Assembly: GCA_038867615.1 (NCBI GenBank)
Contig: JAWBYA010000005.1
Coordinates: forward strand, 73,750 to 137,749
Origin: Sulfolobales archaeon
Lineage (GTDB): Archaea; Thermoproteota; Thermoprotei_A; Sulfolobales; AG1
DNA: 64,000 nt
Direction of reading: 5' to 3'
In this document: positions 4,903-44,839 of the stretch, one piece after another
How positions within the stretch are numbered: position 1 is the stretch's first letter
Layout of the letters: each line of letters starts with the position of its first letter
Position numbers and translations under genes: made by a program
The notes under the pieces: model-generated
Databases searched by the model: none
What the model saw: only the letters and a program-made list of their open reading frames with translations
Told to the model about the DNA's origin: nothing

Positions 4903-4964
4903 TTTTTTTATTCCATCGGGATATTTATTATTTATGTATAGTTTTAGCAGGCTATATCATCTCT

Positions 4965-7900
4965 CTATATTATCTCTTCCTCAGCCCTCCTCTCCATATA
5001 TCTCCTCGCTATCTTCATCAGCACTATCACCGTAGCAACCATGCCAATAGCTACATATACCATAATGAACCTTGATAACATGTTTAACAGTGTTGGCTGT
5101 AGCTTTAATACTAAGTTCCGCTCCCCGACGGGTAGTGGCTCTTCAAGAGTATTATAGCCTGCTGCTACCACTGTAACCCTGTATGATCCGTATGGTATAC
5201 TGATCTCCGCCTTACCATCATTACCGGTCTTCCATGTAAACTCTACCGCCGGGTTCTCAAGGCTTTTTATAGTTATGCCCGCACCATTAATAGGCTGCCC
5301 GGTATCGTCTATAACGCTTATGGTGTAGCTCATGACCCTTCTATTAAGCGATACCTCAATCCTACCGCCACCCACAACTATATCAACCTCCTTTTCTGTC
5401 GCAGTATATATAGATCCCTGCCCAGCAGGTTCAACAACTATTCTCGCATTTCCATGTGGTAGTAAGACAGTGGTAGTAGCACCTCCCGGCGATAATTCCT
5501 CGCTATACATGAGCCTGTCGCCCATGTATACCAGCACTCTGACCGGGGATACAAGATCGCCGCTTATAGGATCTATTAGAGCTATGGTTACCTGATACCT
5601 AGTCCTATTTATACTTACCACAAGATCTTGCCTATCGATGTTTAGAACGCCTCTATAGCCTATATAGAGGCTCTGGTTAAAGGGCTCTATTAAGATAAGA
5701 TAGCGGTCGAAGAATATCCTGGGTATTGTTATTGTACCATTACTTGATGTAATGCCGGAGAAGATCCTTATGTTGGAAATCATGTTGATTATGGATACAC
5801 CAGCATTGGGGACAGGAACGCCGAACTCATCTACTATCATAAGATTTACCTGGATCTCCCTCGGTCTTAAAAGAACCTCTAAGTTATTGATAGAACCAGG
5901 CTCGGTGATGCCGATAAGCGCCTCTCCCTCATGGAAGAAGGGTGATGCCGCGATAACTCTATAGATGCCGAGGGGAAGAACTACAGGGGAGCCAGGCTTG
6001 ATAGTACCAAGATCTCCTCTCAAAAGAGGACCCTCCGCAAACAGTTTTATCGAGATCGACTCTTCAGGGGGCTTTGTAACATCAGCCCCAAGAACCCCAA
6101 CACTTATGTTAAGCATAGCGGTGTTAACCCTGAATATTATGTTTATGTCACCACTCCTACTTACAGTGAACCTGGCTCTAGCAAGCTCTATTCCATCGCC
6201 TATCAATAATGCATAGTGCTCCCCGCCCTCTAGCATAAGATCTAGAGGATCCTCAACAGTCGTTGTATTGATCTTTCCATCTATTGACAACATAAGCCCT
6301 GGCGGAACCATTGCTAGCATCGCTGCATACGGGCTCTCAGGGTTATAGTAGTAGAGGAAAAGCCTAACCCTGTATAGAATTGATCCTGGAAGATCAATTG
6401 TGCTTCCACTAACCACCAGACTGCTAACATACTCTATAGCGCCGCTCAGAACCCTAGCTATATAGGATCCTCTGGGGAGGTAGAGAATGGAGGATCCGTT
6501 TATTATCAAGCCTCTAGCAACGAGACTATCATTTTCATATATTTCTATATAGCCATCAGTAACACCTATTGAGTAGTTGGAAACAACGCCCGTAACAAAT
6601 ACCCTTGGATAGATCCTCACAAGCTCTATAGAGCACCTACTAAACGCTATATCCTGGAGCGCGTTGATAACATATACCCTCGAGGGCGTAGCTAGATAAC
6701 CTCTCCCAAACCCCGCCGAAGTCCACATACCAGGGCCTACCGGAACTCCGAGGTAGTCATCACCCCTAGTACACTCAATAGATGTTGACTGATCAACCCT
6801 GTTTATATGGAGCTTTCCAGAACTATCTATAGCGATCAAAACCCCATCTCTATAGTCAGCAGCAACTATAGATCCCGGGATATCTATCCCCCAGAACGCC
6901 ACATGAAAACCCCTTTGGTCGTTATAGAGAAAATAGTAAGCCCTACCACTATCAAGGATCACTGAGACACCCCGCCCATTATTATCATACCCCACCCACA
7001 CCCCACTTGAAGATGGGGTGGGTAGTATATACCAAACATAATCCTCATACCTATTCTGGATCTTCACAGGTACGGGGTTGAGATTCTGATCGAAGTATAT
7101 AAAAGCCGCCACAAATAGATCTTCACGATAACCAACAATGATTCCTAGGTATGTCCAGGGAACCCCGGCAACATTGGGTTTGATCAGCTTAGCATAGACC
7201 GGCTTAATGTCAAGCAGAAGCGGCTTCCCGAATCTTATGGATTCGGGTGCGCAGGTTGCATCGAGAAGCACGGCATATGTTGGTACAGCGCTCTTAACGA
7301 TCTGTGTAACCTCTCCTTGACCGCTTCTCATGATAACCATATACTCTATCGGTGTCTTTTCAAGCATATATTGATTCAACTCTATAGCTATGCTCTCTGT
7401 CTCGTACTCGGGATGGGTTATGTTAACAATATACAGAGTACTGCTCGGATCTATCAATGGGAGGCTAAGAACAGCGCTCCCGTTCTGATCCGAGATGGAT
7501 TGAAAAACAAGACCTTTCGTCGCCTTGGGCTTTGCCAGGCTTGCAGTCACAACAGCATCAGAGATCGGGTAACCTGTTTCATTATATATAACAAGGGCGA
7601 CGTCAAGCGATGGTGGAGTATATATTGCGAGAAGAAGCGACGGATCAACTCTCCTAACAGCCCCATAGACAACTTCAGTACTAGATATATCTAGAATAGC
7701 ACTTCTCATAAAACTATAGACAGCAGTGCTCTCACGAGGCCCAATCTCAGCCCAGCCACCCCTAGTAACCCTGTAGAGATATAGATAGCCTTGGCTGTCA
7801 AGAAGAGCTAAGATTGGATTGCAGAAAATACCAACCCCTATCGATAGTCTCTTAACAGGAAACCTCGACGCCTGTATATAGCTCGCCCTCCCCTCCCACG

Positions 7901-26357: not shown

Positions 26358-27305
26358 CTACATCGAGCTTTTCTCATAATAGCCACATCTCTTGCAATAC
26401 CCTCTCTTTACACGCCCCCCACAGATTCTGCAGGTATCCCGAGCCTCTGCCTTTCTAAGCCCTCCGAAGATCCTTAGGTATCTTGATAATAAGTACGCCT
26501 GATCCCTCGACCTAGGCTCCAGGATCTTTGACACACTCTCAATAAGATCTTCTGTTACCATCGAAGCCCATATATTGCTGAGCGTGACAGACCCGCTCCC
26601 AACCTCTATAGGTTCTTTTAACCTATAGTAGGATGGAATCGATAGATCCTCTAGCAGGAGTCTCAGGATCTCTTTACCCCTAGCTACCCTAGAATAGGAG
26701 ATCTTGCACTCGGGAGGTATTTTGAGGGCGAGCTCCACCACGCTTTTCGATGCCAATGGCTGGATCACCTCTACCCCTAACTCCTCTCCAAGCCTTGAGG
26801 AGGAGAACTCCATATAGCTTGATAGATCCTCTATATATCTCGATAGATCCTCTAGCCTGTAGAGATGCATATATGAATATCCAGCAAAGAGCTCGTCACC
26901 AGCATCGCCTGTATAGACGCATCTACACCCAAGCTTGGCTGCATATTCCAGGGCTATGTATACTGAGACATCGTTCCTCACCTCTATAGGATCGAAGGTA
27001 TCCATGATCCTTATCACCTCGTCCGTAGCCCTAAGGGCTTCTGAAACACTGAAGATCTTCTGGTGGATCTCTATCCCCAGTTCTCTCGCAACAAGAGAAC
27101 CCCAGTAGAGATCCTTTGTAACGCTCTCCTCAAGACCTACAACTATGCCCTTGAGGGGTATTTTCACAATTTTTCTTGCAATAGTTGCTATATATGATGT
27201 GTCTATCCCACCACTCATTATAATGCAGTCGCAAGCCCTTGACTCGATTTCTTTTGAAACGAGATCAGTGAGGATCTTTGAGGCATTGATGCAATCAATC
27301 CTCAG
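26358..27305 (-). CDS. Asparagine synthetase C-terminal-domain-only protein with C-terminal Zn ribbon, probable CTG start
   Basis: SGGIDTS PP-loop, TGDAGDELFAGY and CxxC...CxxC. The frame extends upstream (LRIDCINASKIL...) to CTG at 27305 after GGTGTG. Confidence 0.85.
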   Translation of the reverse strand: MRIDCINASKILTDLVSKEIESRACDCIIMSGGIDTSYIATIARKIVKIPLKGIVVGLEESVTKDLYWGSLVARELGIEIHQKIFSVSEALRATDEVIRIMDTFDPIEVRNDVSVYIALEYAAKLGCRCVYTGDAGDELFAGYSYMHLYRLEDLSRYIEDLSSYMEFSSSRLGEELGVEVIQPLASKSVVELALKIPPECKISYSRVARGKEILRLLLEDLSIPSYYRLKEPIEVGSGSVTLSNIWASMVTEDLIESVSKILEPRSRDQAYLLSRYLRIFGGLRKAEARDTCRICGGRVKRGYCKRCGYYEKSSM

Positions 27306-27354
27306 AAAGACACACCATTTTATCCCTCGTCACAGAGATATTAATGGACTAGAT

Positions 27355-28521
27355 ATGGTTACCAACCTACCCCCAGAAGCTAGATCTAAGTTCGCTAAGT
27401 ATCAAGAGGCAAAAACCCCTGAGGAGAAGCTCCAGGCATTGCAAGAATTCCTCTCAGCAGTTCCGAAGCACAAGGGTACCGAGAACCTTGTTAGATGGGC
27501 TAGGAGGAGGATGGCAGAGCTTAGAGAAGAGATAGAGAGCAGAAGATCTAGAAGAGGGGGCGGAGGACCCTCTCTATTCACCATCGAGAGGTCTGGGGCT
27601 GCACAGCTCATAATGATCGGTTTTACAAAGTCTGGAAAAACAGCCCTTCTGGGGAGGCTTACCAATGCTAAGGTCACGCCATCCGATATACCCTACTCAA
27701 CCAGAATCCCTATCCCAGGGATGCTTGATTACGAGGATATACAGTTCCAGCTCGTCGAAGCCCCCTCTATTATAAGGGGTGATAGGGATTCGAGATGGAA
27801 TAGGAGATCCCTAGGGCTTTTGAGAAACGCTGACGGTGCTTTGATGGTTATAGACCTCTCCCAAAACCCCTCCGAGGATTATAAAGAGCTTGTCGAGATC
27901 CTTGAGGAGGAGGATATAAGGATCACCAAGCCTAGGGGCTATGCTGTTGTCGAGAAGGACCAGGGATCGCCGGGCATAAGGATCATATATAACGGCAAAC
28001 TTATAGACGGGACTAGCGAGGATGTGAAAAAGATCCTTGAGGGCTATAGGATCTATAGAGCCACTGTAAAGCTCTATGGAGAAGTAACCCTAGACGATAT
28101 CGAGAACGCGGTTATGGGGGCAACCATATATAGACCCTCGATCGTTATGGGTAACAAAGCCGATCTAGATGATGGGAGCAAGTGCGAGGAACTGAGAAAA
28201 ACAGTACCCCCAGAGATCCCTGTTATATGTTGCTCAGCACTAACCGGGAAAGGCTTGGAGAACTTGGGCAAAGTTATATTCGAGAGGCTAGAGATCATGA
28301 GGATATATACAAAACCCATAAACGCCGAGCCATCTAAAAAACCCCTCGTGATCAAGAGAGGATCAACGGTCCTCGAAGTAGCCAAAGCAATACACAAAGA
28401 TCTATATAGGGGCTTTAAATACGCAAGGATCTGGGGACCCTCAGCAAACTACCCAGGCGAGAGAGTGGGTTCAGACCACATACTCAAAGACGGGGATATC
28501 GTAGAGATACACGCAGCATAG
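27355..28521 (+). CDS. DRG/OBG-family GTPase with TGS domain
   Basis: MVTNLP start, PKHKGTE, GFTKSGKT, NKAD and C-terminal TGS (LKDGDIVEIH). Confidence 0.93.
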   Translation: MVTNLPPEARSKFAKYQEAKTPEEKLQALQEFLSAVPKHKGTENLVRWARRRMAELREEIESRRSRRGGGGPSLFTIERSGAAQLIMIGFTKSGKTALLGRLTNAKVTPSDIPYSTRIPIPGMLDYEDIQFQLVEAPSIIRGDRDSRWNRRSLGLLRNADGALMVIDLSQNPSEDYKELVEILEEEDIRITKPRGYAVVEKDQGSPGIRIIYNGKLIDGTSEDVKKILEGYRIYRATVKLYGEVTLDDIENAVMGATIYRPSIVMGNKADLDDGSKCEELRKTVPPEIPVICCSALTGKGLENLGKVIFERLEIMRIYTKPINAEPSKKPLVIKRGSTVLEVAKAIHKDLYRGFKYARIWGPSANYPGERVGSDHILKDGDIVEIHAA

Positions 28522-28793
28522 GGGCTGTTTTCTTTTTGATATTCGTAGGAGGTATTTACAAGCTTTGAAAGGTAGTGTCCTCGGTGTGGGTCTTCCCACA
28601 CCAGCCCAGGTGGCGATGGGAGCAGCGCTCCAAGCCACCCGGGGCAAAGCTAGATGGGAGCCGCGTGCCGTTTGGCTCGACGGTCGCCCATGACCCCGCA
28701 GGATCAGAGATCCGAGATCCTGAGGGTGGAGACGAAAACCCCTGGATGTGACCATGAATAAAATGAGTGGAATGAACATCCAGGGACAAACGG
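28522..28793 (+). mobile_element. Family-2 non-coding element, best-preserved copy, highly structured RNA
   Basis: T-tract, TATA-like TATTTACAA, hairpins GGTGTGGG/CCCACACC, CCCAGGTGGC/GCCACCCGGG, CAGGATC/GATCCTG and CCCTGGATGT/ACATCCAGGG followed by ACA. Ends GACAAACGG like the copy at 20201. Confidence 0.7.
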
Positions 28794-28829
28794 GTAAAGA
28801 ATAAAAGCCCAGCATAGATAATAAATTCA

Positions 28830-28888
28830 GGGGCGGCGCGCCGGGGAGAACCCCCGTGACCGGGGTTCGAATCCCCGCCCGGCTACCA
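28830..28888 (+). tRNA. 3' half of tRNA-Gln (positions 38-76 at 28851-28888) with a 21-nt GC-rich leader, candidate split tRNA
   Basis: C CCCCG TGAC CGGGG TTCGAAT CCCCG CCCGGCT A CCA. The CCCGGCT-A acceptor strand matches crenarchaeal tRNA-Gln (5' AGCCGGG). Leader ends GGAG-AA. TATA AATAAAAG at 28800-28807. Confidence 0.8.
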
Positions 28889-29136: not shown

Positions 29137-30249
29137 TTGGTGGGGTCTTTGATCAGGGTCGCGATTGTTGGTGTTGGTAATATAGCCTCGATGCTAGTCC
29201 AGTCTGTGTATATGTATAAGGCTAGAGGCTCTGTAGAGGGTGTGATGACCGAGAATATAGGGGGGTATAGGGTTGGGGATATAGATTTTGTAGCAGCCTT
29301 CGATATATCCCGTAGAAAGGTTGGTAAGGATCTCGGTGAAGCTATATACGAGCCCCCCAACAGCGTCCCAAGGATCTTCGATGTTAGGAGAACAGGTGTC
29401 ACAGTATCGCCAGGCCCTGTTCTAGACGGTGTGGCTCCCCATATGAGGAGTGTTTTTGAACCTATAGAGACTAACACCGGGCTTGGGGATATCGTTGACA
29501 TCCTTAGATCTTCCAAAGCCGAGGTTGTGGTAAACCTACTCCCCGTAGGAAGCGAGGAAGCCTCTAGACTCTACGCAAGAGCCTCCCTCGAGGCTGGTGC
29601 TGCCTTTATAAACGCGATCCCTGTTTTCATAGCAAGCGATCCAAGCAATACTTGGCAGAAGCTATACAGAGAGGCCAGGATCCCCCTACTTGGCGACGAT
29701 ATAAAGGGGCAGGTTGGTGCTACTATTCTCCACAGAACCCTTATAAAGCTCCTCCACATGAGAGGGGTTCTCATAGACGAGACATACCAGTTAAACGTTG
29801 GGGGTAATACTGATTTCCTCAACATGGTTGATGAAGAGAGACTATATTCCAAAAGGATCAGCAAGACAAGGGCTGTGACAAGCATACTCCCCTACGGCGA
29901 TAAGCTTGAGAACGAGGGGAGGGTGAGGATAGGCCCGAGCGACTATATACCCTTCCTCAACAACACGAAGATAGCATATATATACATAAAAGGAAGATCC
30001 TTCGGAGGCCTTCCAGTAACGCTTGAGGCTAAGCTAAGCGTGGATGACAAGTCAATGGCAGCTGCAGTTCTGCTAGACGCGATAAGGGTCGCCAAACTAG
30101 CCCTCGACAGAGGACACGGCGGCCCTATAAGAGGCCCTAGTGCGTATCTATTTAAACACCCACCGATCCAGGCACCAGACGATGAGACCGCGTATAGATG
30201 GTTCCTAGAATATGTTGAGAAAGGTATCGATATAAACGATGCTAGATAG
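29137..30249 (+). CDS. ino1: myo-inositol-1-phosphate synthase
   Basis: [41 protein letters not shown] and IGPSDY. Confidence 0.95.
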
Positions 30250-43381: not shown

Positions 43382-44839
43382 CTAGCCCTTAGCAACCCCT
43401 ATTGGTCTAAGCCTTGCAACTAGCTTCGCTATCTTAACCCTATCAGCTACAAGGGCTACTTTATCAACATCCTTATAGGCTCCTGGAGCCTCTTCCGATA
43501 CTATCCTTGCATCAACAGCCCTCACATATATCCCTCTCCTGCTCAGCTCGTTTATAACCTGGCTCGCTGGATAGCTCCTAACAGCCCCAGCCCTGCTCAT
43601 CCACCTCCCAGCACCGTGTGGTGCTGAGTAGAATGTCCTTATACTCTCAGGTATCCCCACCATAACGAAGCTCCCAGACCCCATGCTACCTGGTATTAGA
43701 ACAACCTGCCCTGTCTCCTGGTGCTCTTTAGGTATCTCCGGATGACCTGGTGGGAAAGCCCTGGTGGCTCCCTTTCTATGAACAACAACCTTTCTCCTCT
43801 TCCCATCTATATCGTACTCCTCTATCTTTGCTATATTATGGGCCACGTCGTAGATTATGCTTAGATCTAGTTTATCGGGATCGACGTGGAACACCTGCCT
43901 AAAACTCTCCCTAACCCAGTGGGTTATGAGCTGCCTGTTAGTGAAGGCAAAGTTAGCCGCAGCCCCCATGGCTTGGAAATAGTCCTGTGCCTCTTTAGTA
44001 TTGAATGGCACGGATGCGAGCTCCCTGTCAGGCGGGTTGACGCCGTATTTCTTCATAGCCCTCTCCATGATCATTAGATAGTCGCTAGCAACCTGGTGCC
44101 CAAGCCCTCTAGATCCGCAGTGGGCCATCACAACAACCTGACCCTCGCTGAATATCCCGAGCTTCTTAGCGATAGTGGGGTCGAAGACCTTGTCGACGAC
44201 CTGGACCTCGAGGAAGTGGTTCCCAGCACCAAGCGTCCCCAGCTGCTCCTTACCCCTATCCTTAGCTGTTTTGGAAACCTTGTCAGGGTTAGCCCAGTCT
44301 ATAAAGCCCCTCGACTCTATATGGTATTTATCATCAGCCCATCCATAGCCCTTCTGTATAGCCCAGTCAACACCCATGCTGAGCACGTTGTTTATATCCT
44401 GCACAGACACCCTGATCTTACCCTCAGCACCAACCCCGCTGGGGATGTTCTCGAAAAGAGTGTCTACAAGCTCCTTAAGCTTCGGCCTAACATCCTTCTC
44501 CATAAGGTTTGTCCTTATAAGCCTAACACCACAGTTAATATCATACCCAACACCTCCAGGGCTTATCACACCCTCATCGACATCGAAAGCAGCAACACCG
44601 CCTATGGGGAAGCCATAGCCCTGATGCCCGTCAGGCATTACATATACCTTACCAACAACACCTGGGAGTGTTGCTACATTAGCACCCTGTACTAGGGTCA
44701 TATCCTCCCTCATCTTCTTTATAAGAAACTCATCGCCAAACACAATAACATCTGTCCTCATACCAGGCCTAGCACCCTTAGGTATGATCCATGTATACTC
44801 GTCTGGACCTCTCTCGATCCTTATCGACACGACATCCAC
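43382..44839 (-). CDS. rtcB: RNA-splicing ligase RtcB
   Basis: MPDGHQGYGFPIGG, GYDINCG, GNHFLE, HRKGAT and HGAGR. No intein. Confidence 0.97.
   Translation of the reverse strand: MDVVSIRIERGPDEYTWIIPKGARPGMRTDVIVFGDEFLIKKMREDMTLVQGANVATLPGVVGKVYVMPDGHQGYGFPIGGVAAFDVDEGVISPGGVGYDINCGVRLIRTNLMEKDVRPKLKELVDTLFENIPSGVGAEGKIRVSVQDINNVLSMGVDWAIQKGYGWADDKYHIESRGFIDWANPDKVSKTAKDRGKEQLGTLGAGNHFLEVQVVDKVFDPTIAKKLGIFSEGQVVVMAHCGSRGLGHQVASDYLMIMERAMKKYGVNPPDRELASVPFNTKEAQDYFQAMGAAANFAFTNRQLITHWVRESFRQVFHVDPDKLDLSIIYDVAHNIAKIEEYDIDGKRRKVVVHRKGATRAFPPGHPEIPKEHQETGQVVLIPGSMGSGSFVMVGIPESIRTFYSAPHGAGRWMSRAGAVRSYPASQVINELSRRGIYVRAVDARIVSEEAPGAYKDVDKVALVADRVKIAKLVARLRPIGVAKG

Follow-up and report, generated by a model that had tools for sequence, protein, structure and literature searches.

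A candidate split tRNA-Gln with one 3' half for two anticodons in a crenarchaeal genome

Split tRNAs have been described in several archaea, and a 2014 review counted 29 split genes for 12 anticodons in 7 genomes (PMC4033280). According to PMC3218864, PMC4033280 and PMC4390854, Nanoarchaeum equitans contains six split tRNAs, among them a tRNA-Gln(UUG) joined at 32/33 (PMC3218864) as well as two split tRNA-Glu that use one common 3' half, Caldivirga maquilingensis contains six, including a tri-split tRNA-Gly, and Staphylothermus contains a split tRNA-Lys(CUU). The paper on tRNAscan-SE 2.0 (2021) draws for split tRNAs on the N. equitans work of 2005, Fujishima 2009 and Chan 2011, and a 2025 paper on the splicing endonuclease cites Fujishima 2009, Chan 2011 and the 2014 review. 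No report of a tRNA-Gln split at 37/38 in Crenarchaeota was found in the full-text literature (GtRNAdb, subscription journals and supplements being outside its scope); the split tRNA-Gln in the literature searched was that of Nanoarchaeum, at 32/33.

Here we describe a 64,000-nt stretch of DNA (referred to here as the window; G000:C5:73750-137749) from the assembly of a crenarchaeal genome, G000 (2.22 Mb, 28 contigs, 94.4% complete), whose relatives are, by record title, Desulfurococcales, Ignisphaera and similar. Our data indicate that window positions 28798-28888 very probably form a separate tRNA-Gln 3'-half gene and that both Gln tRNAs of this organism are joined from pieces encoded at different loci, the joining itself being predicted. 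The closest described counterpart is the N. equitans tRNA-Glu pair, which likewise has two 5' halves differing at position 34, one 3' half, joining at 37/38, a leader complementary to the G+C-rich trailers and itself rich in G+C, and a junction of the bulge-helix-bulge type. Unlike that pair, the tRNA here is Gln, the host is a 2.2-Mb crenarchaeon rather than a reduced symbiont, and the layout is kept across genera with compensatory changes, a conservation that the N. equitans accounts consulted do not describe. The split tRNA-Gln(UUG) of N. equitans is of the same isotype and is likewise made from two transcripts, but it is joined at 32/33 (PMC3218864), has one anticodon and no shared half, and belongs to an unrelated lineage. 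The preliminary description of this DNA took a split tRNA-Gln in a free-living crenarchaeon to be new; since the N. equitans split tRNA-Gln(UUG) is known (PMC3218864), the novelty lies in the lineage, the position of the joint and the sharing of the 3' half.

Two further systems are comparable. Earlier split tRNAs of the same archaeal order are likewise derived at an intron position with each half under its own promoter, and their stage of adjacent halves recurs for Gln in two relatives of G000 (G029 and G042). These earlier cases concern another isotype, one per genome, with halves adjacent or close, whereas the G000 halves are on different contigs, two isoacceptors use one 3' half, and a second tRNA, tRNA-Asp, is also fragmented. 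C. maquilingensis, like G000 a free-living crenarchaeon, re-uses pieces combinatorially for synonymous tRNAs, and its tri-split architecture resembles that of the G000 tRNA-Asp; in contrast, it belongs to the order Thermoproteales, and the isotypes given for it (PMC4033280 and PMC4390854) are Gly, Ala and Glu, all of which are contiguous genes in G000.

The 3' half in the window and its 5' partners

The features of the window on which the analysis draws are as follows (window coordinates).

28798-28811, + strand: promoter of the tRNA-Gln 3' half, BRE/TATA-like box AGAATAAAAGCCCA (tRNA promoter matrix)
28830-28850, + strand: leader of the 3'-half transcript, 21 nt, G+C-rich, GGGGCGGCGCGCCGGGGAGAA
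28851-28888, + strand: tRNA-Gln 3' exon, positions 38-76, with CCA encoded at 28886-28888 (sequence read)
27145-28521: DRG-type GTPase gene, on one flank of the 3' half
29137-30249: myo-inositol-1-phosphate synthase gene, on the other flank
43382-44839, - strand: RtcB RNA ligase gene (Pfam PF01139, E 4.5e-173, 576.8 bits)
1144-1229: tRNA-Leu, the only tRNA in the window from ARAGORN and Rfam at default settings

The 3' exon reads, in order, C38, CCCCG (39-43), TGAC, the T arm (CGGGG/TTCGAAT/CCCCG), CCCGGCT, A73 and CCA, and it is identical to the 3' exon of intact tRNA-Gln genes in related genomes. Its T-arm/acceptor 23-mer has one copy in the window against 0 expected (100 shuffles), and leader plus exon are single-copy in the 2.22-Mb genome. 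Within the leader, the segments GGGGCGGCGCG are complementary to the trailers of both 5' halves, GGAG (28845-28848) lies opposite C32-U35, and AA (28849-28850) makes up the 3' bulge together with C38. Reading of the sequence thus agrees with the preliminary description of a 3' half that begins at C38, continues through CCA and carries a GGAG-AA leader, and the TATA box and rtcB gene it had named are both present, the former as the AT-rich AGAATAAAAGCCCA 32 nt before the leader and the latter as the Pfam RtcB match listed above. RtcB is the ligase that joins cleaved halves in archaeal tRNA splicing. Both genes that flank the 3' half are of housekeeping type.

A MITE-like dispersed repeat of 245 nt (28551-28793) lies immediately upstream of the 3'-half promoter. 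This repeat has 42 BLAST matches in the genome, itself included, some of them with an internal deletion; at this site it is present in the congener G003 and absent in the congener G002, and contigs from run X1 cover the repeat only (28605-28795).

The 5' half that the preliminary description had not found in the window is indeed absent from it, and both 5' halves were found on other contigs. A whole-genome scan with a pattern in which the acceptor strand is followed, after a spacer, by the G-rich strand of the anticodon stem and a YTG anticodon (AGCCGGG...GGGGCTYTG), as the preliminary description had predicted for the partners, gave exactly two matches, one for each anticodon.

G000:C2:273527-273564, + strand: tRNA-Gln CUG 5' half, positions 1-37
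G000:C9:3025-3062, + strand: tRNA-Gln UUG 5' half, positions 1-37

The CUG half reads AGCCGGG...GGGGCTCTG, G37 and then the trailer CCCTCCGCGCCGCCCCC, and the UUG half reads ...GGGGCTTTG, G37 and then the trailer CCAGGCTGCGCCGCCCCC. Each trailer pairs with the leader through 10-11 contiguous G+C pairs. The 10-mer GCGCCGCCCC, the complement of the leader, has 3 copies in the genome, one in each trailer and one that is the leader itself read on the opposite strand; since approximately 2 copies are expected from base composition, the count itself carries no weight and it is the locations that do. The CUG half lies at least 157 kb inside contig C2, and the UUG half lies 3 kb from the end of the 48-kb contig C9 and is oriented inward. 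When joined in silico the exons give perfect cloverleaves of 76 nt each, identified by ARAGORN as tRNA-Gln(ctg) and tRNA-Gln(ttg).

The trailer of the CUG 5' half is followed immediately by a C/D-box small RNA (L152:1056-1104; G000:C2:273582-273630, + strand). This RNA consists of UGAUGA, a 12-nt guide, CUGA, UGAUGU, a second 12-nt guide and CUGA, and its best Rfam match is sR20 (28.4 bits against a gathering score of 44, E 0.008). It is kept behind the CUG 5' half in the genus of G000 (g1) and is found approximately 45 nt further downstream in genus g3, and it may be released from the CUG trailer by the splicing cut. Complements of the guides with at most 1 mismatch fell in many protein-coding places and nowhere convincing, because the rRNA is mostly unassembled (the assembly holds 23S positions 1875-2973 only); when guide complements were compared with tRNA-Gln, neither guide matched.

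We found that all three Gln pieces carry promoters like those of complete tRNA genes. A matrix of 14 positions was trained on sequence upstream of the 42 ordinary tRNA genes of G000 (consensus AAATTATAAGCCTC, start mostly -33 to -37). On this matrix the 3'-half box scores 10.9 bits at -32 from the leader, which is rank 7 of 42, and the CUG and UUG 5' halves score 9.7 bits at -32 and 9.9 bits at -34, respectively; all three are within the range of the ordinary tRNA genes, whose median is 8.0 (n=42). The fraction of genome positions that score at least as high is 1.1e-4 for the 3'-half box and 1.1e-4 to 3.3e-4 across the three pieces, while two tRNA-Gly att remnants, taken as a control, score 0.5 and 0.4 bits. 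The 3'-half box is conserved in G002 and G003. Three hot-spring metatranscriptome datasets had 0, 0 and 1 reads on the 3'-half stretch, too few to weigh for or against its expression.

In two relatives that split only the CUG tRNA, G021 (L019) and the record titled Ignicoccus pacificus DSM 13166 (L077), the 3' half has a leader of approximately 50 nt and stands directly after the 3' end of another tRNA gene (...GGGCCCGCCA) with no promoter box. This suggests that it is co-transcribed with the preceding tRNA; the matching CUG 5' halves of both are located elsewhere.

No intact tRNA-Gln was found in the 94.4%-complete assembly by ARAGORN, Rfam, regular-expression or BLAST searches. In the tRNA census of G000, Gln(CUG), Gln(UUG) and Asp(GUC) alone are without a contiguous gene; the ambiguous intron-containing ARAGORN calls were read by eye, and His(GTG), Pro(CGG), Pro(GGG) and a third CAT gene are present. 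The Rfam tRNA model missed the 3' half at the gathering threshold, at E <=1 (six loci) and at E <=10 (whole genome). Two EndA-family genes (PF01974) are encoded at C1:316186 (112 bits) and C2:116528 (31 bits), which is consistent with a predicted alpha/beta two-subunit endonuclease; a two-subunit crenarchaeal endonuclease is linked to split tRNAs in PMC3218864.

Among the complete tRNA genes, tRNA-Trp(CCA) (G000:C1:317891-318026) has a 59-nt intron with GATGA-like boxes. The intron presumably resembles the intron-encoded C/D guide of other archaeal tRNA-Trp genes.

Junction structure and conservation in relatives

The register of the junction motif follows the standard numbering for an intron at 37/38. 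In this register a canonical bulge-helix-bulge is possible in 15/15 combinations of halves from 8 genomes: the anticodon stem (C27-G31/C39-G43) has 5/5 pairs, the central helix of C32-U33-Y34-U35 with the leader GGAG has 4/4 pairs, and the bulges of 3 nt each are G36-G37-i1 and A-A-C38. Beyond the bulges, the 15 combinations form an outer helix of 10-13 pairs. For the CUG combination of G000 this helix is 2 bp, a 2x2 internal loop and 11 bp; that of the UUG combination is more irregular, with an asymmetric loop next to the bulge. In the central helix of the UUG combination, 2/4 pairs are G-U. A local minimum-free-energy co-fold prefers a register-shifted central helix of 3 bp, relative to which the canonical motif is less stable by 4.1 kcal/mol (CUG) and 6.2 kcal/mol (UUG).

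The preliminary description had proposed that a G facing position 34 would let one 3' half serve both anticodons. In 56 distinct relatives whose gene is interrupted by a cis intron at 37/38, C34 stands opposite G in 33/33, and U34 stands opposite A in 16/23 and opposite G in 7/23. These counts make G the single base that suits both anticodons, in line with that proposal, and this co-variation of position 34 with the facing intron base is, as read from the genes, independent support for the canonical register.

Our data suggest the following route. The 3'-half gene would be transcribed as a leader of approximately 21 nt followed by positions 38-76, and the CUG and UUG 5' halves (positions 1-37) would each be transcribed separately with a trailer. 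The trailer of either 5' half would anneal to the leader via the G+C helix of 10-11 bp, the acceptor and anticodon stems would form between the two RNAs, and the junction would fold as a bulge-helix-bulge. The splicing endonuclease would then cut after G37 and before C38, and RtcB would seal the exons into mature tRNA-Gln(CUG) or tRNA-Gln(UUG). One 3' half could serve both isoacceptors because position 34 faces a G in the leader, and G can pair with either C or U. We infer transcription, cleavage, ligation and use in translation from sequences, promoters, complementarity, geometry, the lack of an intact gene in the assembly, conservation and co-variation, and on this basis the split tRNA-Gln reading of the preliminary description holds.

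We found that the layout is shared by relatives of G000. Leader plus exon are present in 4/5 congeners of genus g1 (G001, G002, G003 and G005), each of which also has one CUG and one UUG 5' half; in the fifth, G004 (81% complete), leader plus exon were not found and the UUG 5' half is the only piece detected. Genus g3 (G007 and G009) has the same three-gene layout with the leader AAGGCGGTGGCGGCGGGAGAA, in which GGCGGTGGCGGC pairs with GCCGCCACCGCC contained in the trailers. The leader and trailers thus differ between genera yet are still predicted to pair, which is compensatory change in trans. In genus g2 the UUG tRNA is a contiguous gene and its CUG counterpart is split, with the trailer ACCGCCACCGCCTC of G008 fitting the leader GGAGGCGGTGGCGG; G006 (g2, 98% complete) yielded the 3' half and an intact UUG gene but no CUG 5' half.

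Three other families of the order likewise contain split tRNA-Gln genes whose trailers match. In family f11, G023 and G033 encode the two 5' halves together with a single 3' half, and their purine-rich leaders bear no relation to that of G000; a CUG-only split is found in G029 (f7), G021 (f9) and the Ignicoccus pacificus DSM 13166 record. Cognate trailer-leader duplexes have a mean energy of -37.2 kcal/mol (n=15) and pairs from different lineages a mean of -23.0 kcal/mol (n=104), with overlap between the two sets (strongest foreign pair -35.9, weakest cognate pair -30.6 kcal/mol).

In a survey of public sequences, at least 120 loci with the exact tRNA-Gln 3' exon were classified.

Intronless gene: at least 38 loci
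Short cis intron or introns: at least 58 loci
Halves 100-400 nt apart: at least 3 loci
No 5' half within 400 nt upstream: at least 17 loci
Sequence ends too soon upstream to classify: at least 4 loci

By record title, the loci among the matches listed belong to Desulfurococcales, Sulfolobales, Ignisphaera, Ignicoccus, Thermogladius, Pyrodictium and Acidilobaceae. Three public MAG records (L055, L141 and L148) contain Gln 3' pieces that start inside or before the anticodon loop (...CCCCGAATTTGG, ...CCCGACTCTGG), and L141 and L148 additionally have an intron at 37/38. These pieces hint at a putative second split position of tRNA-Gln near 29-32.

Alternative readings of the locus

Contig C10 (41 kb) looks like an element integrated in tRNA-Gly with att repeats. 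On one side a tRNA-Gly(GCC) is cut by the contig end and at the other end there is a copy of the tRNA-Gly 3' part from the anticodon loop onward (the two ends being C10:60-107 and C10:41183-41241); a further tRNA-Gly 3' part lies at C3:267207-267253, and the integrase-family genes of C10 are at C10:27948-28376 and C10:39821-40246.

Given that G000 holds att remnants (the tRNA-Gly(GCC) 3' parts at both ends of C10 and at C3:267207), that C10 has two integrase-family genes and that the 245-nt repeat lies directly upstream of the 3' half, we considered whether the 3' half itself is a remnant of this kind, a partial tRNA-Gln duplicate marking where an integrated virus or plasmid ends. The preliminary description had raised the same alternative, in which intact, intron-bearing tRNA-Gln genes would stand elsewhere and free 5' halves would be missing. 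The genome has neither a second copy of the exon nor an intact tRNA-Gln that could be the original, and it does have two free 5' halves. Against an att remnant also stands the promoter, at 10.9 bits versus 0.5 and 0.4 bits for the Gly remnants, and a leader that fits two free 5' halves would be unexpected in such a remnant. Furthermore, the neighbours are housekeeping genes and the locus is conserved in congeners, including G002, where the repeat is absent. With no intact or second copy, and with a promoter and partners present, we set this alternative aside as very improbable. That the piece is instead the 3' exon of a cis-spliced, long-intron gene is more improbable still, to the point of being hardly tenable. 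When introns were allowed, ARAGORN called a tRNA-Asp(GTC) at C5:102408-102637 that starts at window position 28659 and has a 134-nt intron, and in G029 and G042 the Gln halves do lie approximately 800 nt apart on one strand. However, the 5' part that ARAGORN proposed is inside the dispersed 245-nt repeat with its 42 matches, and we therefore rejected the tRNA-Asp call; it also lacks a D arm and would require mismatches in the acceptor stem, and the same ARAGORN run gave several other implausible long-intron calls. The true 5' halves, moreover, are on other contigs, and the copy on C9 points inward.

That the halves are decaying relics, with working tRNA-Gln genes in the unassembled portion of approximately 6%, we judge unlikely. 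The assembly is 94.4% complete in 28 contigs, and tRNA and rRNA genes are often absent from assemblies of this kind, as with the 23S rRNA, only part of which is present here. All other tRNAs of G000 were nonetheless assembled, the exons are identical to functional orthologues with intact promoters, and compensatory changes between genera and families have preserved the pairing of leader and trailer. The congeners G001-G005 likewise gave no contiguous tRNA-Gln, and every match inspected was a free half.

tRNA-Asp and the origin of split genes

Our data indicate that tRNA-Asp(GUC), the remaining tRNA of G000 without a contiguous gene, appears to be tri-split in genus g1, as judged from its predicted pieces.

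L174:151-185 (G000:C2:58285-58319), + strand: tRNA-Asp exon 1, positions 1-32, with trailer AGGTAGGCCGCCGGGGCC
L175:141-145 (G000:C5:680-684), + strand: tRNA-Asp middle exon TGTCG, 5 nt, positions 33-37
L176:77-114 (G000:C2:139496-139533), - strand: tRNA-Asp 3' half, with leader GGGGCCTGTGGGCGCTGCGGAT

The middle gene has the leader GGCTCCGGCGGCGCCCCCGAA and the trailer CGGTGCCCACAGGCCCC, at each of the two junctions the trailer is complementary to the leader, and the joined exons are a perfect tRNA-Asp(gtc). The outer pieces have promoters of 9.4 and 10.2 bits; the middle piece scores 4.0 bits, rank 41 of 42, though a ATATATAAG box is present, and a T-run follows 2/3 of the pieces. At junction 32/33 there are compensatory changes in G001 and G005 relative to genomes of the G000 type. 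In genus g3 a single tRNA-Asp gene carries introns at the two corresponding sites, and in g2 the gene is intact. No report of a tri-split tRNA-Asp was found in the full-text literature (with GtRNAdb, subscription journals and supplements outside its scope), where tri-splits are reported only for Caldivirga tRNA-Gly.

The ends of the Gln pieces resemble those of an intron. The CUG trailer of G000 starts with CCCTCCG, the first 7 bases of the cis intron of G034 (L007), and the leader ends with GGGGAGAA, the last 8 bases of the same intron; this match points to descent of the split tRNA-Gln from a 37/38 intron, as far as the sequences can be read. Similarly, the trailer and leader of G029 (f7) are homologous to both ends of the cis intron of its congener G019.

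In G029 and in an uncultured Ignisphaera sp. MAG (G042; L042:~4923-5684) approximately 800 nt separate the two Gln(CUG) halves, which lie on one strand, and in this adjacent layout the 3' half has its own promoter-like box. The G029 spacer contains a 129-codon open stretch on the opposite strand (L013:828-1217, - strand). Its reading as a LAGLIDADG protein (LAGLIDADG_3, 19.1 bits, E 0.0016) is below the cut-off of 22.5, and we rejected it other than as a lead. It is possible that a spacer of this type is a trace of the conversion of an intron to a split.

The stages found among relatives are an intronless gene, cis introns at 37/38, halves approximately 800 nt apart, dispersed halves and a shared 3' half. 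A joint reading, which we offer tentatively and regard as possible rather than probable, is that fragmentation of tRNA-Gln is recurrent, ongoing and stably inherited across the order, with invasion of introns by foreign DNA as the route and with selection for the shared half. If this is true, the shared half might be kept, for example, to shield the tRNA gene from integrating elements or to place both Gln tRNAs under common control, and genus g1, in which tRNA-Asp is also assembled from three transcripts, would be furthest along.

These genomes appear without tRNA-Gln and tRNA-Asp to standard tRNA finders, which could mislead as incompleteness or as altered decoding. One carrier of the CUG split bears the title of a cultured strain (Ignicoccus pacificus DSM 13166). 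Split tRNAs bear on the debate over whether tRNAs descend from half genes or whether split tRNAs are late derivatives of intron-bearing genes, and a tRNA-Gln predicted to be joined at 37/38 with a shared 3' half adds a new case. Since intermediate stages occur among the relatives and the leader and trailer are homologous to intron ends, this case favours a late and repeated origin, which is now testable.
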